Positions 1 to 48,261 of a DNA stretch of 64,000 bases are shown in pieces; position 1 is the first letter of the stretch; the number at the start of each line of letters is the position of its first letter. Source of the DNA: Schmidtea polychroa (Eukaryota). A program made the translations under genes and the position numbers. Under the pieces are notes generated by a model that saw only the letters and a program-made list of their open reading frames with translations, had not been told where the DNA came from and ran no database searches. The stretch is taken from contig CM097885.1 in assembly GCA_044892525.1 (NCBI GenBank), forward strand, positions 24,182,001 through 24,246,000. The letters are read 5' to 3'.

Positions 1-1470
1 AGTGTTCTTTAAATCTAATTAACTTAGTCATAATTTTCTTTAATTATTACTGCGAATTCTTATCATCTTTCAAAATTTCTTACTTAATTTAAAATTGCAT
101 CCTTTAATTTACCAAAAATAGCATTTAATTACTTTTTTTTAAATATATCTCTTATTATTATTTCATAAAAAATCTATTTAAATTTATCATTTAAAATTAT
201 TTCAAAATATTTTGCATCTCAAATTGTCAATTCTCATCGTTGATAGTAAATTGTTGACAATAAAATATTACTGTAATTTTAAAATTTTTACTTTAATTTA
301 CTTAATTTAAAAGTATTACTATAATTTAAAAATTTTAATTTTAATTAAATTCTAGACCATTGATTACTCAAGTATAAAATTTTAAACCTTAATTTACCTA
401 TTTATCATTAATTTACTTTAATTTAACCCTTTATTTAATTAATTTAGCCCTTGTTTACCAAATATAGAAGTTTTAAATATAGACCATTGATTACTTTAAT
501 TTAAAAATGTATCCCTTAATTTACATAATTTCCATCTAAAATTTATTCATAAAAATATTTATATAAAATTGTCATAGAAAAATATTTTATAAGTTTTCAT
601 TTTAAAAATTCATTTCTCATCAGATGATAGTTATTCAAAATATCTGACAATAAATTATTAATTTAATTTAAAATTTTACATTAATTTACTTTACTTTAAA
701 ATTTTGAACTTAATTACTTTAATTTAAAACTTAACCTTAATTCACCAATTTAATTTAATTTACTTAATTTTAAAATTTGGTCCTTAAATTACTAATTTGA
801 ACCCTTAATTTACTTAAGTTTAAAAATTTAGAACTTAATTCAAAATTTTCGACCATAATTTAACTATTTATCATTAATTTACTTTAGTTAATTTTAGATC
901 CTTGATTAATTCAATTTAAAAATTTAGACCCTTTATTTAATTTAATTGAAAATTTTAGACTTTAATTTGCTTATTTATGCTTAGTTTATTTAAGTTTAAA
1001 AATATTGACTTTTTTTAATTTACTTTAATTTAAAATTTAATCATTAATTTACCTAATTGAAAATTTTACACCGTAATTTTCATGTAAAAATGTCATTGAA
1101 AAAATTTATATTGTTAGATAATTTTACATATATTGTTAGATAATTTTAAATATATTTCTAGATAATTTTAAATATATTTTAGAATAACTCAGTAATTGGT
1201 CTCAATAAGAATTAATTCTCAATGAGAATTAAGAAAAAGGAAATAAAAGAAAGAAAGAAATGTATTTTCGGGAAGAAGATTGCAAAGTTCCAGGAGATTG
1301 ACAAAGACTATCTTATAGTCGAAAATGTTTTTTCATTAAATACATTATTTACAGCTAAAGGTTTAAATTATCACTTTATTGTTTTAAATAATATTTTGAA
1401 AATAATAATAATAACAGTAATAATAATAGTAATAAGATCTTTGTTCTATTGGAGTCCTGTTTTATGAGTC
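1..1470. repeat. Copy A (partial) of the ~3-kb duplicated segment; degenerate AT-rich satellite
   Basis: Base 1 aligns with 7851 and 20120 (agtgttctttaaatctaatt...). Homology to copy B continues, with indels, to ~1470 / ~9250. Internal sub-repeats such as ttaatttacttaattt and attctcatc. Confidence 0.9.
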
Positions 1471-1560
1471 ATTGTCTTTGTTCTAAAAAAGATGAGTCAT
1501 CGATGAGTCATTGTCTTTGGTAAAGTGTCTATATGTCTTTCTTTAAAAATGATGAGTCAT
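1464..1560. promoter_or_regulatory. Cluster of four perfect AP-1/TRE-type sites (ATGAGTCAT)
   Basis: ATGAGTCAT at 1464-1472, 1492-1500, 1503-1511 and 1552-1560. The homologous region has two more at 9345-9353 and 9404-9412. Function is not demonstrated. Confidence 0.4.
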
Positions 1561-1802
1561 TGACTTTGTTTTGGCGCGTTTAACTAGTACTTTATATTGT
1601 TTTAGAAGTATTGTCCCTTTTTTTTGCATTCCTGTGGATGCTGCTGTGTGAGTTGTATGACTTAAATTGACAATAAATTGATTTGAACTGCTATATTCCA
1701 AATTATCAGTCGACAAACCTGCACCGCTTCACCATCCGCAGTGCTTGTGTAGAAATATATTTGCCATTTCAGGAGACCAATCGAAATCAAGGAAAGAATA
1801 GG

Positions 1803-1905
<103 letters not shown>

Positions 1906-2327
1906 TTGTGGTTTTTTAAAACTTAAATATATTTTACAAACACATTTTAAACGTTAATGTTGACTTATTTAACAAAGACATAATAAAACTAAAATTATTA
2001 AATTAAAGATGCAATAATTAAACCAAAATACATGACATACAGAATACATTAGATATTTGATGGATAAATCTTCTAGAAAATTATAATTATTCATTGATGT
2101 AGTAATCAACAAAAAAACAAAATAGAGAAAAATTCAATAATTAAAATAAAACAAGAGTGCAAATAAAATTATATATTGGATTTTTTGGACCGACTTTTAT
2201 TTTAGATTTTTAAGGAAGGTGGAGGAAATTGCTACCACAGTTGTGATTTCTAGTCACTATTCTAGTCTGCGGTACAGAAATCACCTGATTTGTATGATGT
2301 TCGGTGGTTTATGGATGTCCCAGGTAA

Positions 2328-2510
2328 TTTAAACCCTTTTGCTTTAACTGTTTCCTTACTGCCTAAAAGACTATAACATTTCGGGCGTAAGAAAACCCAT
2401 TCAGAATATCCTAATCCATTTCACTCATCTTTAAACTTCCCGATGACTGAGTCAAGGTTCCTATTATACAAGGGGTGTGTTGGATCATAGTTCGATGTAA
2501 CCAATAAATT
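2328..2510 (-). mobile_element. Polinton/Maverick-type family B DNA polymerase fragment (C-terminal, decayed)
   Basis: Manual translation NLDSVIGKFKDE*NGLGYSEWVFLRPKCYSLLGSKETVKAKGFK carries the GKFKDE / LRPKxY / KAKG motifs of protein-primed PolB. Contains an in-frame stop. Confidence 0.8.
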
Positions 2511-3685
2511 ATCTGAGATCGTCTGAGGTAATAATATTGATAATTTAAGATTTTTTTTTTCGAGAAATGCTAAATATTTTACTCAATTACCTTTTGCTAA
2601 ATATTATTTTAAATGACTAAAAATGACAAAGTTAACCAATAAATTAGTCGCTCAAAATAGGAATATTAACGAAATATATTACATAAATGGAAATATTTCT
2701 CACTAAATTACCTAAGAATTTCTAACTAATATATATGTGCCTTAATTAATATACCGTTGCGACCAATACCTTTACGACAAATACCGATAGGGGGACAAAA
2801 TATCTTTGCGGATAAATATATATATATATATATATATATAAAAGAACTTACAATATGCTATGATCTTTATTGATTAATTTGTTATATATATCAAGAGACT
2901 GATATTCATAAATTAACTAAAATTACTCAAATATATTATATTACCTAAATGTTTTTACTTAATGATACATTAAATGATCTTGTTTTTTTAATATACCTAT
3001 GAGTCAATTTCTAAAATAATCATGTTATTTTATCATGCATTATTTGAATATAAATTTGCTGAATGTGAAATGAACAAGTTTCTTGTTAAATTTCGTAAGA
3101 ATTTAATAATTAATGATATTTTGCAGAAAGGTATATAAAATCTCTATGAATGTTTTCGTCAAAATAAATTAGTTCCTAAAAAACTCACAAAGAATTGCCC
3201 TATAAATTTTATTCGAAACTACCCCCAATTAAATGTTTTGTTGTTTTATTATTTTCACAAGTTTATTATTATTATTTTTTTAAATCGGCATTAATTGAGA
3301 AGGAGATTTCGATTTCCACTTGTCTCATTGGAAAACCTTATAAAATAGGACTACACTAGAACAAAGATGTTATTATGATTAATATTATTAATATTATTGT
3401 TATTATTACTATTATTATTATTATTTTCAAGATATTATTTATCAAAATAATATTATCAATATTAATATTATTATTATTATTATTACTATTATTATTATAA
3501 AGTGATGATTTCTTGGTAGGAGCATTTATTATTTAAAACAATCATTTAAGCGTTTTGGTGCAAATAATGTATTTAATGAAAAAGATTTTCGACTTGTAGT
3601 CCTTGTCAAACTCTTGGAATTTTCTTACCGAAAATACATTTCTATCTCTCTTTTATTTTCTTTTTCCTAATTCTCATTGAGACCA

Positions 3686-3852
<167 letters not shown>

Positions 3853-4310
3853 TATACCGAATTTTATGTCTGGTACAAATATTGTGGATTAAATTTATTT
3901 TAAAAATTGAGACATCCGAACTCAGATATAAGAGAAGTAAAAATTAAAAAAATATAAAACAAAAATAAAATAATATTCAGAGTAAATATAAAAGTCAAAT
4001 TAAAAATCTAAATTTATTATAATTTATAACAATTAAAATTTTGGTAAAATAGTTTTGACATTTTTGTGCAGAATCTAAGTAGAAATTATATGAATTAAAA
4101 TATAACAATATAAACTTTCAATTATTTATCGTTAAAACAAATTAAATAAAATTAAATCTGTGGCTGTTTTTTATGGGAAGTAATGAAGAAGTAATTAAAA
4201 TTTTGTATTCTTAGTATAAATAAATAAAATAACAGGAAACAAATAAAATAATAATCAATGTAAATATAAAAGTCAAATTATAAATCTAAATTTATTACAT
4301 TTTATAAATA

Positions 4311-5216
4311 TTAATATTTTGGTAAAATAATTTTGACATTTTTGTGCAGAATCTTAGAAAAGGAGGCGATATTCGATTTTGACAATCCAATTGAATCTGC
4401 TAGCAATTTTGCGTCTACGTCGACATTTTTTAAGTCACAGACCAATTGAATGCAACATACCGCAATCAAAACGCTTCCTTTAATGCGAAATTCACTAATT
4501 TCACTTACATTTTTTACTGCTTCTTTTACAAGCTTTTCTATTTTGAAATCCGTCACGTCTAAATAATATAAAAATCTGCCAACGAGTAAATCTGGCTTGA
4601 TTTCACGCGTTGGTCGTTTCAATGCAGTTTGGATAAGTTTTAATAACTTTTTGAATTTCTTTTCATCAACCAGTGGACATTCGTTTAATATTTCTTTCGG
4701 CAGTCTCGGAACTTCATTGTCTACGCAAGCCAAATATAGACATACGCAATTCAAGGTCGCTTTGTTTCGCTTGACACAGGCCTCTGATTTTGTAATTTCA
4801 TGGAGTAGAGATACAGCTCGCGAATAAACATTTCTATCTACTTTTATTCTTTCACACAAATCTGCGATTTGTCGTTTCTGGGACGCCAATGACACTTCTT
4901 TGCTACTCTTAGTTGAAAGGAATTTAAATTTCGAATTTCCATTTTCATCTAGAAATCTGAGGTTAAAACCTGTTTGAACGGCAGTCGATGTTTGTCCATC
5001 TGTTTCTGACGTTTCCACCTCTCCGACTCGACAAGCGTCATGTCCATCCGTTCCATCGGATGCGAATGTTCTCCATTCACTAGAAGGATCAATCGCCCGT
5101 TCAACTACAACCAGACCACAAGCGGAACATATCATATCTCCAGTTCGACAATCAGTTATTAGAACTCTATTTGGATGATATTTACAATGAACCATTTTCA
5201 TATTGTCATTATTCAT
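4311..5216 (-). CDS. GTF2B: Transcription initiation factor IIB-like protein, intronless divergent paralogue (301 aa)
   Basis: Zinc ribbon CKYH...CSAC in the metazoan-type context GDMICSACGLVV; B-reader IDPSSEWRTF; D-x-x-RVG motif (DACRVG); two cyclin-like repeats (CLYLAC...VPR..KEI; RF...L). Uninterrupted full-length ORF from ATG to TAA. Confidence 0.92.
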   Translation of the reverse strand: MNNDNMKMVHCKYHPNRVLITDCRTGDMICSACGLVVVERAIDPSSEWRTFASDGTDGHDACRVGEVETSETDGQTSTAVQTGFNLRFLDENGNSKFKFLSTKSSKEVSLASQKRQIADLCERIKVDRNVYSRAVSLLHEITKSEACVKRNKATLNCVCLYLACVDNEVPRLPKEILNECPLVDEKKFKKLLKLIQTALKRPTREIKPDLLVGRFLYYLDVTDFKIEKLVKEAVKNVSEISEFRIKGSVLIAVCCIQLVCDLKNVDVDAKLLADSIGLSKSNIASFSKILHKNVKIILPKY

Positions 5217-5778
5217 TTTATTTGTTTAATAATTATATAAATTAATTAATTAATTAAGCAAATTATTTATATATTATTATTTATTTAATTCTTCATTGGT
5301 TAAAAGTAATTGTTAATCTAAAAAATGCTAAAATATTTTTATATTTAATGTTTTGTGTAAGGTTTTCCGATGAGACAAATGAAAATCGAAACCTCCCTCT
5401 CAATTAATGCACATCTGTAATCAGCAAATGTAATAATTGTAATAATAAATTCGAAATTATTTCGCTGTTTTTTCAAATATGTAAAACTATTTTCTTCTGA
5501 TTTAAATTTTATTTGAATTTGGACAGTTTCATATTTGTGAAAAATAGGGCTGGAATAGCTGTACTGACCTCATGGAAATGTATTTTCCTTATAATTTCGT
5601 TTATAAAGTTAATTATCATAGGAATCTATGTAATGTATTGACAAAAAAAGATTTTGAAAGTAATTAAATGATAAATTATTATATTTTTACATAAATTTAT
5701 GTAATTAAATTTTCTTTAGTTTGTTTTATTTTTTTATTTATTATTTTAAAATTCTTTAATTAATCTTACTCGAGGAAA

Positions 5779-6195
5779 ATTCTCAGCACATACTATCAAC
5801 ATCTTTGCTGTTATTTTCTCTTTGGTGAATTCTTTATTCTCAAACAACCTGTCAACAAGGTCCTACACTTTTTTAAAATATGTTTCAATCTCTTCGCCTC
5901 TTCTTTTATAATTCAATAAACTTTCCATATCCTTTATTACGTCCCTTTCGTAATCAAATGCCATTCGTAACCTGGCTTGAAATCCTTCTGCTTTTTTAAC
6001 TGTTTTCGCATATTTCTCCAATAGATCCTCGTCGATCATGCATGCGGTGAATCTTTCTTGTTCTTTTTTATTGATGCCTTTAGCATCGAATTAGATCTTG
6101 GATCTTCTGATGAATTTTTCCAAGTCATCACCTTGACAGAACACTTTTGGCAATAATCTTTCGTTAATCGCGTCGGTGTTTACCGCTGCCACCAT
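5779..6195 (-). pseudogene. Gypsy-type gag 5' fragment with PBS (copy B)
   Basis: Same sequence as 18054-18470 but with different stops (ATC-TAA-TTC; GTG-TAG). PBS TGGTGGCAGCGGT at 6182-6194 on the minus strand. Confidence 0.8.
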
Positions 6196-6888
6196 ATCAG
6201 GATTCTCATCCGTTTTTAAATCACTAAATAATTCCATGAATTTTCTTTAATAAAAGATATTTCAATTCGGGTAAAGTATACCTATAAAATAAAAATTTAA
6301 TAAAAAAATATTATAATTTAAATGATATATTTTAATAAATGTTTACGCAAAAATTTGCAAATCATTATTATTTATTACAATGAATATTTACAAATTTTAT
6401 TTTACAAATTTTATTTACTAAAAAATAAAAATTTACTAAATTAAAAATATTAACATTTACTTAAATAAAAAATTATATTAAATTTCCTTTAAATTATAAA
6501 AAGGAATCAATACTTACATTGTAAATTTTTATTTCGATTTATTGACATAATTTTTCTCTTTATTCGTATTACCTAAATTATCAATTAATTAAATCAATAA
6601 ATTAAAAATTATGTTTACTTTTTCTTTTCAAATTTCCTTTAATCTTCGATTTCAAATTGTCTTCATTAATATTATGTAACTAAATAAATTATTTAATTAA
6701 TCAATAAATTAAAATTTACCAAATTTCTGAATTTTTTTCTCGGACATTCATAACGTTTTCTATTAGAGAATTCATTTTTAAAGTTAAATATTTGTAAAAT
6801 GTGACTAATGATAGATTATTGTTTATAGACTGAAGATAATAAACAGGAACAAATTCTAACCAATCAAAATCAAGGAAAGGTAGGAAAA

Positions 6889-6946
<58 letters not shown>

Positions 6947-9143
6947 CGTTGCGGTATTTAAATTTAAATTTATTTTAAAAATCCATTTTGACGCTAAAGT
7001 CGATTTATATAACAAAGACATAATATACTCATTATTTCCTACAAATATTTCACCCATCAAATACCTACCTAGAGATGATATATATTGATTGATCATAATA
7101 GCAAACTAAATCACAAATTTCAGTATATCTTACAATAATTTTCAAGTAAATTTGAAGTCCTTGATAAAGTTAACTGGTTTCTTAGCTTATGTATTTTTAA
7201 AAGTTCATCAATGTGTAAATGAAAATATTCTTAGAAAAGTATTGAAAAGATTATTGAGTCAAGTGCAATACAAAGTCATCTAAAATTAAACCTATTACTT
7301 GATTATTAACTTAACAGTCATTAAAAAAATTAATTTTTTTTTTAAAATTTAGAAAATTATCAAGAAATTCAATTAATATCACCATTAAAACTTTAAATAT
7401 TTAATCAATCAACATGAAATTCTTAGAAAATATACAAAAAACTACTTAGTCAAATTCAATTACATTACAAAGTCATATCCTATCACTTGATAATTAACCT
7501 AACTGTCAATAAAAATAATTTTTATTTAAAATTAAAAATCAATCAATAAAAATGCATCCAATTATCAAGAAATTAATTAAATTTATCTTAGAACTAACTT
7601 TAAATTTTTAAATATTCATTCAATCCACATGAAATTCACGAAAATGATAAAAATTCTCAAAAACCATCAACTCTAAAAAAAATTACTAATGAATAGACAC
7701 CAAAATTTATCTAAATAATCTTTCAAATTAATTCATTAAAATTGAAGACAACACGTTGGAATTTGTCATTACATTCAATTAAAATTAACTAAATCAAGAT
7801 ATGAACTTTGATAAAAAATATTATTGTAAAATGGTTAGAATTAACACTGTAGTGTTCTTTAAATCTAATTAATTTAGTCATAATTTTCTTTAATTATTAC
7901 TACTAATTCTCATCATCTTTCAAAATTTATTACTTAATTTAAAATTGCATCCTTTAATTTTCTTAATTTTAAATTTTAGCATTCAATTTACCAAAAATTG
8001 CATTTAATTACTTTTTTTAAATATATCTCTTATTATTATTTCATAAAAATTCTATTTAAATTTATCATTGAAAATTATTTCAAAAAGATTTGCATCTGAA
8101 ATTGTCAATTCTCATCGTTGATAGTTTTTCAAAATATCTGACAATAAATTATTACTGTAATTTTAAAATTTTTACTTTAATTTACTTAATTTAAAAGTAT
8201 TACTATAATTTAAAAATTTTAATTTTAATTTAATTCTAGACCATTGATTACTCAAGTATAAAATTTTAAACCTTAATTTACCTATTTATCATTAATTTAC
8301 TTTAATTTAACCCTTGTTTAAAATATTGACCATTGATTACTTTAATTTAAAAATGTATCCCTTAATTTACATTATTTCCATCTAAAATTTATTCATAAAA
8401 ATATTTATATAAAATTGTCATAGAAAAATATTTTATAAAAGTTTTCATTTTAAATTTTCATTTCTCATCAGATGATAGTTATTCAAAATATCTGACAATA
8501 AATTATTAATTTAATTTAAAATTTTACATTAATTTACTTTAATTTAAAATTTTGAACTAAATTACTTTAATTTAAAACTTAACCTTAATTCACCTATTAA
8601 ATTTAATTTACTTAATTTTAAAATTTGGTCCTTAAATTACTAATTTGAACCCTTAATTTACTTAAGTTTAAAAATTTGGAACTTAATTTAAAATTTTCGA
8701 CCATAATTAACCTATTTATCATTAATTTACTTTAGTTTAATTTTTGATCCTTGATTAATTCAATATAAAAATTTAGACCCTTAATTTAATTTAATTGAAA
8801 ATATTAGACCTTAATTTGCTTATCTATCCTTACTTTATTTAAGTTAAAAAAATAGACTTTTTTAAATTTACTTTAATTTAAAATTTAGCCATTAATTTCC
8901 AAATTGAAAATTTTAGACCATAATTTTCATGTAAAAATGTCATTGAAAGGAAATAAAAGAAAGAAAGAAATGTATTTTCGGGAAGAAGTTTGCAAAGTTC
9001 CAGGAGATCTGCAAAGACTATCTTATAGTCGAAAATGTTTTTTCATTAAATACATTATTTGCAGCTAAAGGTTTAAATTATCACTTTATTGTTTTAAATA
9101 ATATTTTGAAAATAATAATAATAATAGTAATGATAACAATAAT

Positions 9144-9206
<63 letters not shown>

Positions 9207-9250
9207 TGTAATAAGTTCTTTGTTCTAGTGGAGTCCTGTTTTATGAGTCT
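5779..9250. repeat. Copy B of the duplicated segment (gag 5' part, PBS, LTR end, AT-rich satellite)
   Basis: 5779-8718 is near-identical to 18054-21053. 7851-~9250 matches 1-~1470. Confidence 0.92.
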
Positions 9251-10069
9251 TTGTTCTAAAAAAATAGATGATGAATCGTTTGACGAGTCTTTGTTCTAAA
9301 AATAAATGATGCATTGTCTTTGTTCTAAAAAGGATAAGTCATCGATGAGTCATACAGAAAGGGGGATGTGAAAAAAAAATAAAACAGTACCCACATTTAA
9401 ACGATGAGTCATCGATAAGTCATTGTCTTTGGTAAAGTGTCAGCATTGGCATCGACATGGAGTTCCAATATTCATTATTATATTTAATATTACTGTTTAT
9501 ATTTCACATTTGTCTGTTATTGAATGAATGTAGAAAGCCTCCTTCTCTATATAGATGACTTGTTAATGAATTCCTAATTAGAAAGTTTACTCATGTCAAG
9601 AGGCTATAATTACTTTGTGAAATAGGCAAAGATTTTTTCTTCATGTTACCATATTCATGTTAACATGTTATCAACAACTGATTAATGACAAATTGCAAAT
9701 TATTGACTATTTTCAATTAATATAATATTATTACTTTTCATTAATAAATGTTTTAAGGCAGTACGAATATTAGTAATCAATTAAAAGTTGAGCAGATCTT
9801 TTGTGAATAAAAATTAGAATTCTATAGTCTTTCGTTGTTATTTTAAAATATTTGAATTATTTTCAATTTCACGTGGTGTTTTAAAGTGTTTGAGTTGATA
9901 ATTATTCATTTTTGACGAAAATCAATATTTTTGTTAAATTTAGACTTAGACAGAAAATGTTTTTCTACTGATTGTAATTAAATATATTTTTGAATTTAAT
10001 ACATATAAAGGGTTAATTTATTTAAAAAGCATTTGATAAAATACAATGAAGAATATTTAGTTGATTGTA

Positions 10070-10392
10070 AATACCTGGTTGTAAGTCTTTAGTATCTGGT
10101 TGTTTGAGAGTTACTTAGTATTTGGTATCTGGTACCTAGTTAGTTGGTTGTTGTTGATTGTTAGAAAATAATCTTTGAAACTAATCTGTTAGTAGCTAGT
10201 TGTTTGTTGGTTGTTAATACATGGTAGCAGCTATCTGGTTGTAAGTTCTTAGTTGTAAGTATTTGGTACTTATTTGTTAGTACCTAGTTAAAAATCCTTA
10301 GCAGCTGATAGTTGGTATTTATTATCTGAATGTAAATAATACCTAGATAGTACATATTTGTTAGTATTTTGGTTGTAGGTATCTGGTTGAAT
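10070..10392. repeat. Degenerate short-period minisatellite (tatctgg/tacctag/tagttgg-like units)
   Basis: Repeated gtatctggttg / tacctagt / tagttggt motifs. Confidence 0.6.
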
Positions 10393-10577
10393 TTTAGATT
10401 TTGACAAGAATTTAAGAAATATTCTTCTTCCTGAATTAAGAAAAGCTTATTATAAGCAAATATATGATGATGAATAAATTTTGTATCTTTATCACTGTCT
10501 TGTTAATTTTTATTTATTATTATAGTTATTTTTTATGTGTTGTTAATAAAGTCTTTAGTTGTTAAGTATTTGGTTGA

Positions 10578-10610
<33 letters not shown>

Positions 10611-11388
10611 ATTATTACTTGCGAAATTTGCATCTAAATTTTCTTTAAAAATTATTTCATAAAAACTTTCATTAAAGATTTTAATTTCACAATAGCTGCC
10701 TATCATTCAAACCTTTTGATTATAAAATTAAAATTATTACTTTAATTAACTTATTTAAAAATTTACTTTAATTTAAAATTTTTATTTATTTTACTTAATT
10801 TAAAAATATTACTTAAATTTTTAAAATCTTTGAACAATGATTACGTTTTTTTAAAAATAAAAGCCCATAATTTAATTTGATCAATTTTTAGACTCTTAAT
10901 TTACTTAAAATTAAATTATTCTCATCATCTTTCAAACTTTATTACTAGTTTTTAAAATTTAGCCCTTCATTTACTTATTTACCAAATATAACCCTTATTT
11001 ACTAATATTTTTAGTAGAAAAAATTAATTGAAATCGATCTTTGAAATTAATTTAATAAAAATTTGTATTAAATTTTGCCTTTGAAAATTATTTCATAAAA
11101 CTTTCTATTTAAAATTATCTTACAAAATTATTTCATAAAAAATTTCATTTCTCAACAGCTTGCAATTATTCAAACTTTGTCATAATAAATTTAAAATTCT
11201 TTCTTTTATTTACTTTCAATATATAAGAAGTTATATTATACAAAGAAATTCAATAGACTGACTGTATTATGGAAACACACAAACTTACCTGCGCTTTAAA
11301 TTTTAATGTTTTAATGAATAAAATCTTTTATATAGAAGGTGAGAAAGTGGTAGAAAAATAAAATTAACACACAAATACAGCACATATA

Positions 11389-12281
11389 CACCAAACACCA
11401 CTGAGATACGTTCTCTATAGTGGTGGTTGGCGTGTAAATTCACTCACCAATTTATTTACCAATTGTAATTGGTTGTAATTGTAAATCATCTTTGTCAATT
11501 TATCATGTCTCATTTATATATTTTGGAAATTTATTTTAGCCATTTTACAAATGGCTTTCAAGTAATTTTTTTTATTTAAAGTAAATTTTAAGACTTGAAT
11601 TCTGATCCATATGAGATATGAGATCATTATTCAAGTTCTTAAATATTACTTTTAATCAACAGTATAATTATATATTATTTTAATTAATTTTCAGGGTTTC
11701 TAGGAATTTTATGATATTTACCTCTATTTATTTTAGAATTATTTCGAAAAAATGTGAGTCCGATATATTTTTAATTATAGTTAATGAAATAAATAAATCA
11801 ATCACCTAAAATATTTATTTTTTTAAAACATTTTGGGGAAAATCGATGATTAAAATAATTTTTGTAATTTTTTTTCTGAACTCAATATGAGGAGCTTCTT
11901 TCAGGAAATCAAATCGGGATTGAAATGTTATTGAACCAAATTCATCTGCTCTTAATATTTTCATTAAAAATATAATTTTAAAAATTTTCAACGATCTTTT
12001 TTTTCTAAAAATTGTCAAAAATAAAGTTTATTATAGAAACGTATCTCATCGTTACATTTATACGAATCAAAAATTTGTATGTGCTTTTTAGTATGTGTTG
12101 CGTTTGTGTGCAGTTTTTAATTTTCCTTCCACTTTTCAGTTTTCTATAATATAAGATGTATCTCACTGAGCTATAAATTAGAACATCAACGTGAAATCAA
12201 AGTAAGTATGATGTTTCTATAATGTAAGATTATTGATTTTTTTGTTATATTATAGGAAACGGTTCTCAGTGGTGTTTGGTG
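11389..12281. mobile_element. Putative MITE-like element with inverted termini and TA flanks
   Basis: CACCAAACACCACTGAGA at 11389 and its exact reverse complement ending at 12281, each flanked by TA. Weaker inverted homology extends over 11240-11420 versus 12030-12250. No coding capacity seen. Confidence 0.45.
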
Positions 12282-13479
12282 TAAACCAAAGCGCAATTGA
12301 TAATGACTAAATGGACATTAAATAAAATCCAGTCAATTGCGCTTTTTATTAATTTTAATATTAACAGAAATTTTAAATGATTAATCATGTGTATTTAATT
12401 GACTTATTTTCTTTTTTATTTAATATAAATATTTTAAAATATAAATTAGGAAAGCCAATGAATGCCGTTTATAGGTTATTGTAATGAAAATTTGAAATTA
12501 ATATTTTGGGGAATTAGATAAATTTTTATAACTTGAGAATACAATTTAATATTTAACGAGTTTGTGAAGCTTTAAATTAAAGTTTGTGTAAAGCATGTTT
12601 AAACATTTCCGTATTTTAAAATACAATTTTTCATATAACTTGTTGAAAGTTGTAATTGTTAATTTTTTTAAAGACACCTGAAATCAGAAAAAAATTTTTA
12701 TTAAATTTGTATTGAAATAAACTTTGTAAAAAAATATTTTTAATGAACAATCTTCGTTTAAGTCAAAGAATTTTAAAATGATAATTTATTTAAAATATAT
12801 ATCAATAAAATTAAATATTATTTAAAATAAATAATAATTTTTAAATTGTAAAATTTAATTATTTTTATTTTAATAGTCATTTAAAATTATTTATTTTGCT
12901 TATGCTATAAATTATTAAATACATATTAAATATTAAGTTTAAAGCGTTTAAAAAATAATTTATTAGTAATTTAGATATAATTGGTGTTGTATTATAAATA
13001 AGAAAAAGTGAATTTAGTATAAAAATATATTTTAAAAAAACAAAATTTGTCATATTCTGATATTTGCGACCAAATATTTTATAAGAATAAAATTTTTTTT
13101 ACAATTTATTTTTAAACTTTATAAATTTTATATATTTTTTTGGAAAATATTGTAAATTTGAATATCATTTAAGTTAATAATTAATTTGTTTAAATTTATC
13201 TAAATTATATAATATATAAACTAATCCAAAAACCAAATAAATGTTTTGATTCAGAAAAGATTTCGAGTTCAGTTCTGAATGTTTTACATTGAATGACAAA
13301 TAGAATATAACAGAAAATACCAGAAATGGAAGGAAAATATTTTTGTAACAGAGTTTAATGAAATTCTATTCGGGTTATGATGTAAAATAACCATTGATGT
13401 TTGAAATAACGAATATTTACCAGGAAGGTCATTGTGGAGTAATTGAGATATTAATTAAAGAAAAATGTGCGAAAACATA

Positions 13480-13988
13480 GTAGATCCTTTAAAACATCTG
13501 TTTCGCAATCGAATGCCAATCGCAACCTAGCCTGGAATCCTTCGGCGTTTTTCAGTGTTTTGGCGTACACTTCCAGGAGATCCTCATCAATCATGCAAGA
13601 TGTTAATCTTTCATGATCTTTCTTCTGCGTGATTCCCTTGGCGTCGAAATAAATTTCGCATCTTTTAATGAACTTTTCCAAGTCGTCACCTTGGCAGAAT
13701 ACCTTTGGTAGCAATCTTTCGGTGATTGCGTCAGTGTTTACCGCTGCCACCATATTAGGATGTTCATCCTGTAAAACATTAAAATCAGTGTTTGTTTCCA
13801 TAAATTTTATTTCAGTAAATATCAGTATCAAATTATATCTTCTTTAAACTTTCTTATTTAAACAAATTTTCTACGAAGATATTTTTAATTAAAATATCTT
13901 TTTATTATTTTTTTAAAAATTAATCTAAAATTTTATTTTTAAAATTTTATATTTAAAAATTTCTTCATCATAAAACTTCCTCATAATA
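13480..13988 (-). mobile_element. Gypsy LTR retrotransposon 5' remnant: LTR (13753-13988), tRNA-Leu-type PBS (13740-13752), gag 5' part
   Basis: ORF MVAAVNTDAITERLLPKVFCQGDDLEKF... is homologous to the zinc-knuckle-bearing ORF at 17769-18470. PBS TGGTGGCAGCGGT. The LTR boundaries agree with the solo copy at 37136-37358. Confidence 0.75.
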
Positions 13989-14010
13989 TATCTTATGATT
14001 ATTAAGTCTT

Positions 14011-14460
14011 TCATTCAGACGACAATGTCAGGTTCCAGCACTTTTTTTGATTGTTTCCATTGGCTACGATTTTGATTGAAATATTTTTTCTTTCTTTTTT
14101 TGGTTGACAATGTTGGAGATGTATGTTCACCGAAGATTTCCCACCAGGATCTAGATGTTCTTTAACTCTTTGGTGCAAGGTCCTGAGTGTACTTACAATG
14201 TATATTTCCTTGCATAAATTGCACGTGATGCAATAAACATAGTTTTTTTCTAAAGCACACATCTTTCGGTGTCTGGCAGTTTTCCATTGTGCAATTGTTT
14301 TCTTTATTTGTGTTGTTTGCCAGAGTTTTACTCAATGTCCAAGATTTATGTGCTATCTGAATCGAACGACCGATGCGTTTAAGTTCTTTAAAGATCTCGA
14401 AATCCAGTAAGTCACTGATGAATGGGATATTAAGATAGAAATATTCCTTCTTCTTTTTCT
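14011..14460 (-). mobile_element. Penelope-like element C-terminus: linker and GIY-YIG endonuclease (frameshifted)
   Basis: LNIPFISD...; Cys-rich linker CTMENC...VC; then NYVYCITCNLCKEIYIVST.RTLHQRVKEH...SSVNIH, matching the PLE GIY-YIG pattern VYxIxCxxCxxxYIGxTxRxLxxRxxEH. Confidence 0.88.
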
Positions 14461-15592
14461 TCTCCAATTGATCCTCGTCAATCATGCATGCAGAGAATCT
14501 TTTCTGTTCATTTTATTTCTTTTTTATACCTTTATCATCGAAATAAATCTCGCATCTTCTAATGAACTTCTCCGAGTCATCAATTTAACAAACGACCTTT
14601 GGCAACAATCTTTTGGTGATCTTATCGGTGTAAACTGCTGACACTATATAACAAGGGTGGGCACGCATGGGTTCAATAAGAGCCATTTTCCGAAAATTTA
14701 TTTTTTACAGAGCCACCATAGTAAAGTACATATTTTTTTTATTTCATTAATTTGATTAAAGAGACTTAAACGCTATTAAAAAAAACAAAATAATTATTTC
14801 AAACATTAAGTAACAAACATAAAAATCCATTAATAAAAAGTAATAAAATTTCTTGAATTAACGAAGACTTTTGGTCAAATCTTTGAAATTTGGTGTATAC
14901 TTTGTTAAAGCTGTTCGCAGCAATTCTGTAAGATGCTGATTGGTCAACTGTGAACGATATTTCGACTTTACGAACTTCATTGTGGAGTACAAAGATTCAC
15001 AACAATATGTTGTACCAAAAATTGATATTTTCGTTTTTTGATGTTTTCTGATGTCATTATAATAATAAATTTAAATAACTATATGGCTGAAATTTAAACA
15101 AAATAATAAAAAGACATTAATTTAATTTTAATTAGTTTAAAATTTTAAAATGCTTCATAAAAAAATCTTCTTACCAAATTTTTCAAAAAACACGAATAGA
15201 AAACTATACTAAAATATACAAACGACCGCAATCTTGTACAAACAAAATAATAACCAATCAAAATTCACTAAATTTATTTTTGATGCTTCTCTCTCGTTGT
15301 TATAACAAAGCGCCGCCTACTACAAAATAATTTTAAAAAGCAGTAAAATGTGAAAAACAATGTTTCGTTAATTTTTGACATTTATGAAAATACAATTGCA
15401 ACAAAAAATTTTTTCTCAAAACATTTAGTGAAAAATTTCAAAATAAAAAATCGAATTCGATTATCAAGAATTCAATTATCAATGAGCAGCAGTTTACTCA
15501 ACGAAGAGCCGCATTTGCCCACCGTTGCTATATAAGGATTCTCATTCGTTAAAACATTAATATTGGTTTGCAAATTATTAGATAACTCCATA
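14461..15592 (-). mobile_element. Diverged gag 5' fragment, PBS and LTR end, interrupted by a hAT element
   Basis: 14461-14643 is homologous to the gag 5' region. The sequence resumes as ggattctcattcgttaaaacatt (LTR 3' end) after the hAT insertion. Confidence 0.7.
14652..15527 (-). mobile_element. Non-autonomous hAT (Charlie/SPIN-type) deletion derivative, 876 bp
   Basis: TIR CAAGGGTGGGCA / TGCCCACCGTTG (11/12). Perfect 8-bp TSD CTATATAA at 14644-14651 and 15528-15535. Internal dimerisation-domain remnant IFGTTYCCESLYSTMKFVKSKYRSQLTNQHL on the minus strand at ~14860-15030. Confidence 0.92.
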
Positions 15593-26764: not shown

Positions 26765-27709
26765 TTAATGGCCATCAATATTTATATCAGTATTTGTACC
26801 TGCTACGGAATTATTAAAATGACCTTTAGATCGAATACAAGGCATGATCATATACAGTAAAACCAATCTCCGAGATTTCATGGTAACTAAACATATAATT
26901 GGGTTTAAACAAATGCTCAACAGCTGTAACATTATTGCCACCTCTTGAAGAGGTCCATAATAGACATATTCAACAATTCCAAAAGCACTAAAAAAATAAT
27001 ATGACGGTTCTAATGGAAACAATACAATAAATTGAAGAGTAATAATTGTCGCAATAAACGTTAATAATTTCTTTGCCTTTTTGTCTTCAGAATTCTTTTT
27101 GGTCAAATCGGACTTTTTTGAAATTTCAATTGTAATTTTTGAATAAATCGTAATGAACATAATTGTGGGTCCGATATAAAAGAATAAATACCAGAAAATT
27201 GCGTAAACTAATTTATGAACACGATAATAATTCTGGGAAAATAAGGGGTCACTTGTGCAAGTGCCATTGAACTTTTTATCAAATGCGGTAGGCACCACAA
27301 GCACAACGCTGATGATCACGATCAGGATTTGACTGCTCCAAATCAAATGTCGCTGCTTCCTAGCATAGACACTCGCCTTCAGCACTGCTACGTAACGATC
27401 TATTGCTATCCAAACGAGGGTTTGAACGCTTGCCATCATTGTTATCCAATAGAACACTTGACTCGTCCAAAAATAGCAGACGAAAATATCGAAAATTTGA
27501 AAATTCGAACCTCTATATAACGGTAAATACCGACTAGCCAGATAAAGAACTGATGCCATGAAATCATAAACCGATTGGGTACTCAACAAAATACTCGTAA
27601 TTTTTGATTTCAGTGGACTCTTCCAAAGAGTCAAGGTGAAAAATAAATTTCCAACCAATCCGAAAATTACGAATATTATTTGAAAAATATTAGTTAAGGA
27701 AAAATCCAT
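26765..27709 (-). CDS. Rhodopsin-like (class A) 7TM GPCR, intronless CDS, orphan
   Basis: GLVGN in TM1, IAIDRYVAV (DRY), ECL2 Cys, and CLNPII in TM7, with seven hydrophobic segments. The ORF track starts at a TTG (27751); the first ATG is at 27709 (MDFSLT). Confidence 0.93.
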   Translation of the reverse strand: MDFSLTNIFQIIFVIFGLVGNLFFTLTLWKSPLKSKITSILLSTQSVYDFMASVLYLASRYLPLYRGSNFQIFDIFVCYFWTSQVFYWITMMASVQTLVWIAIDRYVAVLKASVYARKQRHLIWSSQILIVIISVVLVVPTAFDKKFNGTCTSDPLFSQNYYRVHKLVYAIFWYLFFYIGPTIMFITIYSKITIEISKKSDLTKKNSEDKKAKKLLTFIATIITLQFIVLFPLEPSYYFFSAFGIVEYVYYGPLQEVAIMLQLLSICLNPIICLVTMKSRRLVLLYMIMPCIRSKGHFNNSVAGTNTDINIDGH

Positions 27710-35764: not shown

Positions 35765-36254
35765 ATCTTTTTATATAATAGTAGATAGACTTATAATTGA
35801 AATGCGTAAGCGACTTGGAGCATATCAAATGTTATATGAAAGATTTAATTTTTTGGTGGACAAAAGTTTAACAAATAATGAAATAGTTTCGAAAGCAAAC
35901 CAGTTAGTGCAAATATATTCTTCAGATGTTGAAGATGCATTTATTGACGAGTTTTTATTATTTTCACGAATGTATGGGAATAAAAAATCAGTGAAGGAAA
36001 TGATAATTGCACAAATAAATGATAAACTAGCTACCAGTTTTCCAAATGTAAATATTGTGTTAAGAATTTATTTATCGATATTTGGAACGAATGCGGAAGG
36101 GGAGCGGAGCTTTTCAAAGCTTAAAAGAATAAAAAATTGCCTCCGATTAACTATGGGACAGGAACGATTATCATTTCTTACGCTTTTATCAATTGAAAGT
36201 GATTTAATGCTAGAAATTAGTTCGCCAATAAAAAATGTCGGAAGGTTAGTTTAG
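35765..36254 (+). mobile_element. hAT (ZMYM1/Tip100-like) transposase C-terminal fragment
   Basis: FPNVNIVLRIYLSI..TNAEGERSFSKLKRIKNCLRLTMGQERL..L.LLSIE is a hAT dimerisation domain. Confidence 0.85.
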
Positions 36255-43830: not shown

Positions 43831-45544
43831 TTGCAGGATATAATCAATTATTCTAAAATGAAAATACGATTTTGAATTACTAAAATCGTATTAATATCTG
43901 AATTAAGTCACAAGAACGAAAATTTATAGGTACTTTAATTTCAATCAAATCATCTACAGAAAACTGTATTCCAATAAGAGGATCGTTGAATGATTGTTCA
44001 TAATCCAAATCTCCAACCGAAACTTTATTTCCAAATCCCAATCAATTTTCATTTACAATAAAAATAAAAAGTACCAATTCCTCGCGTCTGTGTGCGCATA
44101 CTAATACGAACACAAGTCTGACAATAACGCGCACACAGACGCGATTAAAAACGCCAAAATCGGCCGAAACAATATCTTTAGGTAAAACCTATTCAATATA
44201 CGCTAAATTACGAAAGGTGAGCAATAGTTTTAGAATAATTTGGATAATATAAATTTTAATTTTTGGGTAAAGTGTAAAGGTTTGATTTTAACAACATAAA
44301 GCCACATGTTGTGTGAAAGCACTGTCTAATCGGAAACCATTAAGATAATGTGGACATCAATGACATTTTATTTTGGTATTACAGTCTGGTTTTGATGACA
44401 GTTCATTAATCGTTGAATACTGGTTACTGTGGTGTAATGATACATATCCTTATTTTCTAACAACAATAAATAAATCGGATTACAGCCAGTGACTTTTGAT
44501 CTATGAATAAAAACAATTTTCAGGAACATCATCATCACTATCTACTATCACAGTATGAATATGAAAAAGGATATTTATAGCCAAATTAACTGTACGCAAG
44601 CTGTCCTGCTAACCACTTCTGGGATTTTACTTTCGAATTCGGAACTCTTTTCTTTAACTTTGCCACTCCACCGAAACTTGCTTCGAAAACTTTAATTTAA
44701 AATTAGGTAATGAGGGATTAGCACCCATTGTTTATGATTGATTTCTTATAACTCGACCTAATGATGATAATGCCAATGGTATTAATGCACCAATTAATCC
44801 ACGTTGTTGTTAATATATAATTTTTCTCATTTGTTTACAATTTTTATTAATTATTAACGATAGCAAATGTTTCTTGTGTTTATTTAATAAATGCGTTTTG
44901 GATTTACTGTTTTTTATCTTACCATTACTTTGAGTATAGTATAAAGTGATGATTTCTTGGTAGCTGCATTTATTATTTAAAACAATAAAGTGATAATTTA
45001 AGCTTTTGGCTGTAAATAATGTATTTAATTAAAAGATTTTCATAGATTGACAAGGACTATTTATAGTCGAAAATCTTTTCATTAAATACATTTTTCGCAT
45101 CAAAATACTTAGATTATCACTTTGAGTATAATATCGAGTAAATCATCGACAACCAAATTAGGAAATGAATGCAAAATCGTCATTCTTTTCATGCTCAGTG
45201 CGTTTAACAAAACGTGAAACTGTGATGATTTTTAACAGTTTTGACATGTTTCGTTTTCTTATTCTTCTTATTATTAGGTTTAAGATTTTTTGAAATAAGA
45301 TTCATTACAGGAATATATTCAGTTATACTTTTTTTAGATGGAGTATAACTAGTTTTTGGTGAAAAATGGATTTTAATATTCTTTTTAATATTTTTTCTAA
45401 GGTTTTCAACCCATTCATTTAAAAATATTTATTACTCAAACATGTTTTCAACTTTGTTTATAAACCATGGAACCTTCTTTATTGAAAATATCAGTTTTTA
45501 CCCGTAAATCATCAAGACATTGTTGCGTAAAATTAAGAAATATA

Positions 45545-46406
45545 CAGGGTTTCCAAAAAAGTTTCATCCTTTTCCAGAAAAGTTTCATCCTTTTCCAAAA
45601 ATGTTTCATCCTTTTCCAAAAAAGTTTCATCCTTTTTTAAAAACGTTTCATCGACAAATATTAAAATAAATTAAAAAGGAAGTACACGATTAAGGTAATT
45701 ATTTAAAAATCTTCATCAGCAAAAGATATTTGGGTAAAATCACACGCGTATTGAAAACGTTTTGCTTTATTCTCAGTCGTATTTCGTGCCATAGGAACCA
45801 ATGTAACTCTCTTAAAGCTATAATGGAAAGCTTCAATTGCGTTGGATATTGTACTTTTTGATAACGAAACGTTGAATTTTTCTAGTATTTTGGATTTCAA
45901 GGTGTTTAAAGTTATTGAAACTTCCTCGTTGATTTCGTTTTTTATAAAATCAACCTGCTCCGGCGTTATTTTCTTCTTTTTCCCGCATTTTTTGATTGCG
46001 GATTTTATTCTTCCAGTTTCTTTATATATTTTAATGACAGCTGTAACCGTTTTAACATTCAATTCCAACTCTTCGGCAATTTTAACACTCGGTTTTAAGG
46101 CATTGTATTTTCCGCATATAAGTTCTCTGAGATGGTCAGTGAGTCTTGTTCTTGGTGCCATTGGGGCTTAAATATGCTTTATTATATCCTCAAAAATGGC
46201 GGGAAATTTAAAGAATTCATAAAATAACATTGATTTTATCTTTGGTTTTTCATTAATATTAATATTTCTACATTTGAGGTTGAAATTTTGTGGAAAAATA
46301 TGAAACTTTTTTGGGAAAGGATGAAACTTTTTTGAAAAAGGATGAAACTTTTCTGGAAAAGGATGAAACTTTTTTGGAAAAGGATGAAACTTTTTTGGAA
46401 ACCCTA
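45545..46406 (-). mobile_element. Tc1/IS630-type internally deleted transposon, with TIRs built from 21-bp tandem units
   Basis: CAGGGTTTCCAAAAAAG... at 45545 and the inverted copy ending at 46406 (terminal base mismatched), with TA on both sides. ORF 45703-46161 encodes only the HTH N-terminus (IAEELELNVKTV...SLSKSTIS...YSFKRV); no DDE domain. Confidence 0.88.
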
Positions 46407-46439
46407 TATATTCGTGTGACAATTTTGTAGCATCTTGAA

Positions 46440-46850
46440 ATGCACTGATTAGAAAATTACGATTATACGGATATGCTTGTCATTCAAAATAATCAATAAA
46501 ATTTGCATCTCTAAAATTCGTGAAAACAGCTAAATATTGAATATTCAAATAACGTGTTGATTTTGGTAAATAAATTATTAAAATTCTTTTCTTTATTAGC
46601 TTCTTGATACAAATCATCGATAATGATGACATCACCGTTTTTTAATCGACTTGACCTGTTTTTATTAAATCCATTTACTATTTTCATATATTTCAACTTA
46701 CAAAATTATCTTGAGTCAATCCATGTTTTTCCTCTGCATTCCGGTGTCAATAAATCTTGTTGAATTTTGTTTTGAATAATTGAACCTTTAATAACTTCCA
46801 AACAAAAAATGTTTTTCCACTACCGCATGGGCCAACAATTTGTTTTACCG
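46440..46850 (-). mobile_element. Polinton-type (A32-like) packaging ATPase fragment
   Basis: Walker A IVGPCGSGKTFFV (~46800-46840) and Walker B IIIDDL followed by NLFTK. Frameshifted. Confidence 0.7.
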
Positions 46851-48261
46851 CATCATTTCTTAATTCTATCATTAAGCTTTATAAATGTAGTTTTTAGTTT
46901 GTATTTTACAATTTTATGAACTCAAACTAAAATTTTATATAAAGAATAAAATTTCATAGATCATTTATTAATGTTATCGAATATAAATTATTGAGGTAAT
47001 TTCGATATGTCAAAAATGACGATCCCCAGCAAATTGTCGATAGAAGTGGAAAAACCCAATAATATTTTTCGAATCAGGTAAATACAGAAAAATGGTCTGT
47101 AAAAAGCCATTGGATAATTATAATTTACAATATCGAATAAATAATATTAAAATTCAATCAATTACTGTTACTATGGATATTGGATATATTATCAATATAT
47201 ACAACATGTCAAGAAAATATCATTGTATGTTTGAACCAGAATTATTTCCTCTCTGACACTTTTAAAATTAACGTGTTAACGTGTCTACTAGTGGTAAAAA
47301 AGTTGTACTAAAATTTCGGAATTTTGAGTACAAAGATGTTACTAACATTCAAAAATAAATATTGGTGAACCTCTGATTAGTTGTTACTGGATTGGTTACC
47401 TGTTATTTGAAAAATAATGTTTATTCATTTCATATCAGTTTTAAAAATGTACAAGATTCTTAGCTCTATTTAATTAATTAATGAGATTTATCATTATGGT
47501 AAATTATTAATTACATTTCTATAATAATTTATTTTGAGATGAGTATTCTGCAATTATAATCGAGCGGTTGAAGTTTAATTACCCAAAATTGAAAGTTGTT
47601 CTGAAAGATAAAGCCATGCAATCGATTCCGGAATTGGAATACAGCGAAACCAGGATTTGGATGTTCGAGCTTATTCATCAATTCATATGTTATATTAAAA
47701 TCTATTAAAATCAAGAATGAGCATAATTAAGTGCAGTTGATGTGCTGACAGATATCAGCTTTATTTTGAATGGGCTTAGTGAAATCTCTTCGAAGATTTC
47801 ATTTTTCAAACATTTTATCAAAATAAATTTTAATGTTTTTATTGTTTCTTGTTTTTATTATATGAAGCGCTAATAATAATAATATTGATTGAGTTAAAAA
47901 GACGACTAATAAAATTACGCTTTTATTTAATAAATTTGAAATAACTTAAATTGTGAATTATTTAAACAAAATTCATGTCGTTGATAAATCAGATTTTTTA
48001 ATAATATTAAAACATTATTAACATAATAATAAAAAGAATATTAATAATCACATAAATATAGAAGGGATTTACAAATAAAATAGAAATACATCATGCGTGC
48101 AAATTAAATAAAGAAAAATTACTTAAATTTGATTAAATATTCAATATCTTTGTTAGGTATAAAAACTCGATACCATCTTATGTAAGTCATAATTCACAAT
48201 CACAAGAAACTTGAGAGATACGAAAAAAAAAGTCTGCAAGGTTTATATGAGCAAAATCATT

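Follow-up and report, generated by a model that had tools for sequence, protein, structure and literature searches.

To our knowledge, TFIIB and the two large subunits of RNA polymerase II (Pol II) are treated in animals as an invariant, single-copy core. Diverged paralogues of general factors have been described, among them TBPL1/TRF2, TBPL2, ALF, the Drosophila tTAFs, tPAF and Moonshiner, the last a TFIIA paralogue at Drosophila piRNA clusters, and these tissue-specific forms change TBP, TFIIA, TAFs or PAF1. In plants, the large subunits of Pol IV and Pol V are derived from those of Pol II and are far more degenerate, with a degenerate bridge/trigger region and loss of the heptad CTD, and the TFIIB family has expanded (BRP factors). 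TFIIB-family adaptors also serve Pol I and Pol III (TAF1B/Rrn7 and Brf1/Brf2). In TFIIB itself a conserved Arg and Thr touch two glutamates of TBP, and the Arg is missing in TAF1B/Rrn7, according to PMC7221094.

The locus described here, in a 64,000-nucleotide stretch of the Schmidtea polychroa genome (hereafter the window), compares in part with each of these systems. It carries an uninterrupted, intronless frame on the minus strand (P0001; Table 1) that shares with canonical TFIIB (GTF2B/Sua7) the Zn ribbon, the B-reader (EWRxF plus R66) and two cyclin folds and nests in the TFIIB clade, but is only ~28-31% identical to it, occurs in 13 copies and is changed at R169, T176, GRSP and the V283/T284/R286 helix. 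Like the diverged general-factor paralogues it is probably stage-restricted; unlike in those cases, duplication here extends to TFIIB, TFIIF, TFIIE and the two large Pol II subunits. P0001 may serve another form of polymerase, as TAF1B/Rrn7 and Brf1/Brf2 do, yet it branched recently from TFIIB proper and has a TFIIB-type reader, and BRF-type genes exist separately in the genome. With the orthogonal viral TBP-TFIIB pairs (PMC7221094) it has diverged TBP-contact positions in common, but it is host-derived and lies outside any element. The analysis establishes that the TFIIB retrogene is real, selected, host-derived and amplified and that its genome has a multiplied Pol II apparatus; we consider it probable that the 301-aa paralogue initiates transcription for a second, diverged form of the Pol II machinery, likely that of the early embryo (blastomere stage).

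Table 1. Features of the window (positions in the window) and companion loci elsewhere in the genome
Feature	Location	Strand	Details
Intronless TFIIB paralogue P0001, 301 aa	4311..5216	-	Zn ribbon C11-H14/C30-C33, B-reader SEWRTF + R63, linker, two cyclin folds
CCAAT box ~80 nt upstream of ATG, putative promoter element	5295..5299	-	In 5/7 copies with printed upstream sequence; CCAAC in L008, absent in L012
Relic of last intron of CCDC66-like gene, TFIIB antisense inside	3937..5360	+	GT donor at 3937 kept; acceptor AA here, AG in C3 copies
Remnant, 3' end of host penultimate exon	3922..3936	+	
Copy of host last coding exon + 3' UTR	5361..5660	+	92.7% identical to C3 original; accompanies all 7 C1 copies
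Inverted 52-56 bp piece of host last exon	3282..3339	-	Pairs with 5359-5410 as an apparent inverted repeat; seen at the 7 C1 copies only
Partial duplicate (86%) of TFIIB 3' end 4213-4357	3936..4079	-	
Part of recent ~40-kb tandem segmental duplication	1..15029	.	98-99.7% identical to neighbouring unit
RPB1 loci	G000 C1:68.04, C1:206.93-207.05, C2:186.19 Mb		L226-L231
RPB2 loci	C2:112.98-113.00 + 151.54-152.01 Mb		L232-L238
TFIIF-beta copies	G000 C2:150.26-151.34 Mb		L250-L257; 17 copies, 13 in 3-kb tandem array

The initial annotation described the frame as an intact, intronless TFIIB paralogue, and translation, Pfam, PDB and fold comparisons all bear this out. Pfam finds the Zn ribbon (Zn_Ribbon_TF, PF08271, E 1.5e-10) and one TFIIB repeat (PF00382, E 7.9e-9), the second repeat giving no Pfam match. 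The AF2 model (66-sequence alignment, mean pLDDT 81.8) comprises a ribbon, a low-confidence reader and linker, and both cyclin-type helical repeats (pLDDT about 80-95 over residues 105-297), and its top Foldseek matches are TFIIB chains in Pol II pre-initiation complexes; Foldseek also aligns it with 1d3u_B (rmsd 1.8) and 1c9b_A (rmsd 2.8). The top PDB sequence match is mammalian TFIIB at E 6.3e-34, against 9.5e-4 for Brf1, and P0001 nests with the canonical gene; it appears to group with TFIIB and not with BRF.

Alignment to the 316-aa vertebrate TFIIB was used to place the motifs. The CxxH...CxxC ribbon (C11, H14, C30, C33) and the SEWRTF reader (E47, W48, R49, F51) with the equivalent of R66 (R63) are in place, so that the Pol II module is kept as the initial annotation had it, and the replacements it listed, KGR by VKR (R154 kept), CRQE by CVDN and GRSP by IKGS, are right. 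Its remark that NPLL is lost is true of P0001 but is not diagnostic, as the canonical TFIIB of the same genome also lacks NPLL. The Arg/Thr pair that contacts the TBP stirrup, which we take to be R169 and T176, is replaced (R169 by V165, T176 by L172), and position R169 is hydrophobic also in the relatives P0002 and P0039. Beyond the IKGS loop, S281/N282/A284 stand in place of V283/T284/R286, a helix of which V283 and R286 presumably read the BRE; in the canonical paralogue GRSP is present, although positions 283 and 286 are changed as well. The basic, backbone-facing positions 154, 178, 189, 193, 196, 248 and 272 are still K or R. If the stirrup arginine is indeed R169, P0001 resembles TAF1B/Rrn7 in lacking it (PMC7221094).

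The changes are unevenly distributed along the protein. We counted how many of the alignment columns conserved in 90% of 17 canonical TFIIBs are retained. In the ribbon the count is 15/18 for P0001 and 16/18 for the canonical paralogue, and in the reader 10/18 and 11/18; in the first cyclin repeat P0001 drops to 13/39 against 34/39, and in the second to 9/48 against 37/48. The core of P0001 is nonetheless 47-61% identical to that of P0002, which together with the retained basic residues indicates that the TBP/DNA-facing core has been rebuilt rather than decayed, the Pol II-facing ribbon and reader being kept; P0001 would thus be TFIIB-like toward the polymerase and non-canonical in its contact with TBP. 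A protein with an intact Pol II module and without the TBP-contact Arg/Thr pair could also be a decoy or repressor, which binds Pol II through ribbon and reader, makes no TBP bridge and titrates canonical initiation, for example to hold back the adult programme in blastomeres, and a high copy number would suit titration. We regard this as quite unlikely, because the core itself is under selection (21 synonymous versus 25 non-synonymous alleles without the diverged copy L013), keeps its basic residues and its similarity to P0002, and is accompanied by a full set of companion paralogues.

A genome search with the paralogue gave 28 matches, made up of 13 full-length open copies, 4 partial copies and exons of other genes, and a separate search with the ribbon gave 22, namely the 13 intronless TFIIBs, six intron-bearing TFIIBs and three BRF-type loci. 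The intact copies, all 13 of them stop-free, fall into two groups, seven on C1 at 23.85-24.19 Mb (99.7-100% identical) and six on C3 at 38.2-39.1 Mb (89-96%), and the near-identical tandem copies could partly be assembly duplicates. The window gene is hence not the sole TFIIB of the genome, in keeping with its initial reading as a paralogue, and a separate canonical, intron-containing gene was found elsewhere. Five of the six intron-bearing loci could be modelled, the sixth being a 99% inverted twin of one of these; one is canonical (RGRNNEA and GRSP, ~50% identical to other animals' TFIIB) and four are diverged (31-41%). Introns at about aa 32/123/166/259 are common to all five models, which include mini-introns of 41-58 nt, in an AT-rich genome of 781 Mb. 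All four introns of the canonical gene are spliced in contigs of runs X7 and X12, and some of them in X10 and X11, and these runs are therefore RNA. The last of these introns (L051, about 5552) is 3530 nt long, with a GC donor in the model, and its joint is seen in RNA contigs. The BRF1-like gene is duplicated (G000 C1:8.375 and 8.422 Mb; L056, L057), and a BRF2-like locus lies at C2:166.98 Mb (L058).

Full-length relatives of P0001 at 56% (P0002), 42% (P0039) and 36% (P0040) identity show that the lineage is old. Two trees were built, of 39 rows each, with long branches, SH-aLRT/aBayes values on a fixed topology, no viral TFIIB rows in either and no BRF rows in the second. The intronless clade joins the diverged intron-bearing paralogues in both (SH-aLRT 97 in the first, 100 in the second), and in the second the diverged paralogues join the canonical gene and its close relative P0204 (SH-aLRT 100).

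As the intronless paralogue lacks all four introns common to the intron-bearing genes, we infer retroposition. No poly(A) remnant or target-site duplication is visible at the window frame, as the initial annotation had noted, or in any of the seven printed copies, and none is expected because divergence from the intron-bearing paralogues is near saturation. The gene occupies a new site unrelated to that of its parent: it runs antisense within introns of a gene with a CCDC66 domain (PF15236, E 4e-9). This site was traced through loose ends of RNA contigs from X7 (2984 nt, depth 81) and from X10, a run with another species label, which join sequence just 3' of the TFIIB gene to window 5359-5361; the joint fits a GT-AG splice on the opposite strand, and the frame runs across it to a stop. 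Both flanking host exons are intact at one C3 copy only (L011), where 906 of the 1120 nt of the host intron are TFIIB, and a second C3 copy (L008) lies between two earlier candidate exons of the same CCDC66 gene.

The host last exon with its 3' UTR (92-93%) and an inverted 56-bp piece of that exon stand beside all seven C1 copies; the window copy is accordingly a DNA duplicate, which was later multiplied in 7.9-kb and 40-kb tandem units. Window 1-8900 matches a 7.9-kb unit of which C1:23.85-23.87 Mb carries three tandem repeats. The flanks at 3288-3340 and 5358-5410, which the initial annotation had singled out as sequence that copies might share, form a 52-bp inverted pair of 90% identity. 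They are not element termini: a 52-bp inverted repeat as transposon end is ruled out, the pair being the host last exon and the inverted piece of it. The history that best fits these observations begins with duplication of an ancestral flatworm TFIIB into a fast-evolving intron-bearing subfamily, as the tree shows; one member, to judge from the loss of four introns, would have been retroposed antisense into the last CCDC66 intron, and DNA-level duplications, which carried the host exon along, then spread the cassette within C3 and to C1.

Several further genes were seen around these sites. An XPG-like gene (PF00867) lies directly upstream of CCDC66 at C3:38.28-38.30 Mb (L090) and an RRM-type splicing-factor-like gene farther along at C3 38.41 Mb, both known from exon translations only and usable as synteny markers. 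At the edge of the C1 cluster (C1:23.84 Mb), L063 615-2003 (minus strand) holds a 463-aa frame with a weak TAF4 match (E 0.024, below the cut-off).

The initial annotation also considered that the gene might be cargo of a mobile element or virus, and a related version makes it the partner of a Polinton-encoded TBP-like protein. Near-intact Polinton-like elements with PolB, a double jelly-roll capsid and an A32 ATPase do lie 3-5 kb from two of the 13 copies, a different and very abundant Polinton family codes for a TBP-like protein, and viral TBP and TFIIB co-occur (PMC7221094). However, the gene is not found between terminal repeats in most copies: it lies outside the ~940-bp terminal inverted repeats of the nearest Polinton, which end 3.2 kb short of it beside L002, the other C1 copies have the same TFIIB segment but no such element, and the C3 copies share just ~1.1-1.6 kb with ragged ends. 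The tree moreover sets the gene among host TFIIBs, and its original location was an intron of a host gene. The cargo version is thereby largely refuted, and to the mobile-element reading as a whole we attach almost no probability.

Near-intact Polinton-like elements with ~940-bp TIRs sit at breakpoints of the C1 cluster (C1:23871121-23884888, 23897742-23912438 and 24088937-24103234) and may have promoted its rearrangements. In the abundant family (L114, L110, L119 and others) a TBP-like ORF lies next to an A32-type ATPase; 150 of 2998 first-look candidates were scored. A decayed Polinton remnant with TBP-like and ATPase pieces occupies window ~44700-47800 (C1:24226.7-24229.8 kb). The frames near P0001 are short, in line with the broken neighbours described in the initial annotation: the first 25 kb contain six further ORFs of >=100 aa that start with ATG, all of just 107-204 aa. 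Decay is not uniform over the remainder of the window, since transposase-like frames of 653 aa and 459 aa are long; hAT, Tc1-like, RT and other transposase-like ORFs lie at 35802-36254, 45703-46161, 48438-49073, 51408-52277, 55977-57938 and 62558-63937. An intact, intronless 314-aa rhodopsin-family GPCR (PF00001, E 2e-18) at 26765-27709 on the minus strand has no relative at E 1e-10 in a protein search. Elsewhere in the assembly, mitochondrial COX1 contigs use TGA for Trp and AGA for Ser, with ATA at positions that are Ile in other COX1 (the flatworm/echinoderm code), and L243 (G000 C433) carries a COX1 that, unlike the mitochondrial copies, is open in the standard code without TGA and is possibly a contaminant contig.

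The intronless copies are under purifying selection. With each allele counted once, the 13 copies show 35 synonymous versus 54 non-synonymous changes (omega ~0.46, p 4e-4), and without L013 omega is 0.34 (p 2e-5). This synonymous excess differs from the dN/dS near 1 that would have spoken against a functional paralogue. The window copy compared with five of the six C3 copies gives omega 0.25-0.35 (p 6e-5 to 7e-3, the pairs not being independent), and with L013 it gives 0.94. L013 (C3:38243235-38244137) is the most diverged intact copy (89%), with changes in the ribbon and second repeat, and may be relaxed or diversifying.

Expression was sought in the RNA runs. An 876-nt contig of X7 covers 4349-5221 at depth 37, compared with 730-1055 for canonical TFIIB mRNA and 0-9 for unique intron pieces of the canonical gene; the contig is unstranded, and contig depth does not rank genes. 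Its letters match five C3 copies at 17-18 of the 20 listed positions and the window copy at 0/20. The contig is a hint of expression for the TFIIB family (C3 type) and no proof for the window copy, and host pre-mRNA could contribute to the signal, since introns of an expressed host gene contain two of the C3 copies. X11 gave no cover of the ORF and X12 next to none of its words, and as canonical TFIIB depth there is just 28 and 104 they are uninformative on stage; X10 gave a 213-nt piece at depth 2.6 with a 16-nt gap, too weak to use. The mismatch with the window copy, the ride of the copies in TE-rich duplications, the 4 partial copies and the one copy with omega near 1 would all fit a non-functional retrocopy multiplied passively by segmental duplication. 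We hold this to be highly improbable, as all 13 full-length copies are open, the synonymous excess is significant with or without L013, and full-length relatives persist at 36-56% identity.

The genome also contains paralogues of Pol II subunits and of other initiation factors. RPB1 occurs as three types, 70-79% identical, one of them in 4 near-identical copies and each with NADFDGD and 18-27 CTD heptads; RPB2 likewise comes in three types (72-89% identical), of which one accounts for 5 intact copies and 2 shorter frames. The multiplied type is tandemly amplified in both subunits. Catalytic motifs are kept in all types of both subunits, and between types dN is 0.07-0.22 and dS >1 or saturated. 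As in plant Pol IV/V, paralogous largest and second-largest Pol II subunits are present, but here the types are 70-89% identical to each other, the active site, bridge and trigger are 92-98% conserved and the heptads are retained; the amplified RPB2 type is clearly Pol II, and Pol IV/V subunit 2 appears only as a distant PDB match. The CTD of the amplified, tandem RPB1 consists mostly of YSPTSPG heptads (15/19). Its dock-like segment, within borders that we assume, is 71% identical versus 70% overall and shows no extra divergence, which speaks, as do the stirrup glutamates kept by the diverged TBP-like genes, against co-evolution of the interface.

Among 20 TFIIF-beta matches, 17 represent one 264-aa single-frame type at C2 150.3-151.3 Mb, beside the amplified RPB2 cluster (five of the 17 were translated and are 96-98% identical), and two further loci, 37-52% identical in pieces, bring the total to three types. 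TFIIF-alpha has 3 loci (30-48%), TFIIE-alpha 3, RPB3 2, TFIIA-gamma 2 and host TBP 6. The Pol I/III large subunits and TFIIA alpha/beta appear single, which argues against plain whole-genome multiplication. In exon-wise searches, which miss genes, none of 4 candidates for TFIIE-beta passed the Pfam search and RPB9 gave 1 locus only. These duplicated Pol II subunits, TFIIF, TFIIE and TBP support and extend the other branch of the initial annotation, that of a specialised initiation factor.

The same companions bear on a simpler reading, in which P0001 is a dosage or expression-only paralogue that performs ordinary TFIIB function with ordinary TBP and Pol II, is restricted to a single stage or tissue, and owes its divergence to drift under relaxed constraint. 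Its fold is intact by AF2 and Foldseek, its basic positions stay K or R, an omega of 0.3-0.5 is high for a basal factor, and the diverged host TBP-like genes show no matching TBP-side change, both stirrup glutamates being kept in the three that are readable in a single frame. We consider this reading unlikely, though deserving of some weight: the loss is concentrated in the core, the N-terminus being as conserved as that of the canonical gene, the hydrophobic residue at R169 is common to P0001, P0002 and P0039, and the polymerase and TFIIF paralogues are old (dS saturated or >1) and co-amplified.

The stage of action is suggested by embryo expression tables for Schmidtea mediterranea (PMC5293490). 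SMED30033223 (TFIIB, E 2e-22) is early-embryo-enriched there, with RPKM of 0 in yolk, 19.9 at S2, 8.6 at S3, 1.2 at S4 and 0 in both adult types, and SMED30013669 (TFIIB, E 9e-45) has 5.4-7.8 in S2-S4 and about 0 in adults. Transcripts for three TBP-like proteins, a TFIIE-beta-like protein, two RPB2-like proteins, RPB9 and RPB3 are also early-embryo-enriched, as are two SPT5-like and seven FCP1-like transcripts, and partial transcripts may also account for the short RPB2-like E-values in these tables. No row for RPB1 or TFIIF turned up in the single S3 table that was searched for them, six searched SMED ids do not occur in supplementary files 11 and 12, and the main text of PMC5293490 has no match for TFII or TATA. 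Scored against arthropod TFIIBs at similar database size, the types fall into tiers, with E-values of 1e-94 to 1e-98 for the canonical gene, 1e-48 to 1e-52 for two intron-bearing paralogues and 1e-25 to 1e-28 for the intronless type. The tiers agree with the two SMED entries; among the TFIIB types of the genome, only the intronless one falls in the tier of SMED30033223 (1e-25 to 1e-28; others 1e-32 to 1e-98). By E-value tier, an indirect match across species, the intronless type would be the counterpart of SMED30033223.

The embryo stages concerned are piwi-1 positive according to PMC5293490, which would suit a role like that of Moonshiner, that is, promoter-independent initiation in heterochromatic, transposon-rich or piRNA-source regions of germline or stem cells. 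A diverged basal factor with a rebuilt DNA/TBP face invites this comparison, which the initial annotation drew, by analogy only; TE-rich surroundings are the norm in this genome and the ancestral seat of the gene is a gene intron, and we judge such a role very unlikely. We found no description of these TFIIB/Pol II paralogues in the open planarian or metazoan literature searched under the spellings used: the text of PMC12751228 has no match for TFII/TATA/GTF2, PMC11410931 none for six polymerase/duplication terms, and PMC13134418 has no planarian content.

If P0001 is, as we favour, an initiation factor of a second Pol II apparatus, it would still engage a Pol II and assist promoter opening through its conserved B-ribbon and B-reader. 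In the rebuilt cyclin core the basic, backbone-facing residues remain, but the Arg/Thr grip on the TBP stirrup is gone; P0001 would then need a diverged TBP or another mode of TBP binding, and the set of promoters that it selects would differ as a result. The co-amplified RPB1, RPB2 and TFIIF-beta types are its likely partners, and amplification likely raises dosage for a short developmental window.

A wider proposal, which we put forward tentatively and with somewhat more doubt than belief, is that planarians run a dedicated early-embryo Pol II holo-machine with its own RPB1, RPB2, TFIIB, TFIIF, TFIIE, TBP, SPT5 and CTD phosphatases, co-amplified in tandem arrays, so that the transition from blastomere to neoblast would be a swap of the whole basal apparatus and the window TFIIB its promoter adaptor. 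If true, this holo-machine would be to animals what the Pol II-derived polymerases are to plants. A genome in which Pol II comes in three types and TFIIB in at least six, with one set co-amplified, would show that development in an animal can be regulated by exchange of the core machine and not by activators alone. The paralogue would offer a natural altered-specificity TFIIB for the study of how the TBP-TFIIB-Pol II interface evolves, and an RNAi-testable candidate for two questions raised in PMC5293490, the shut-off of the early-embryo programme as neoblasts form and the timing of zygotic activation.
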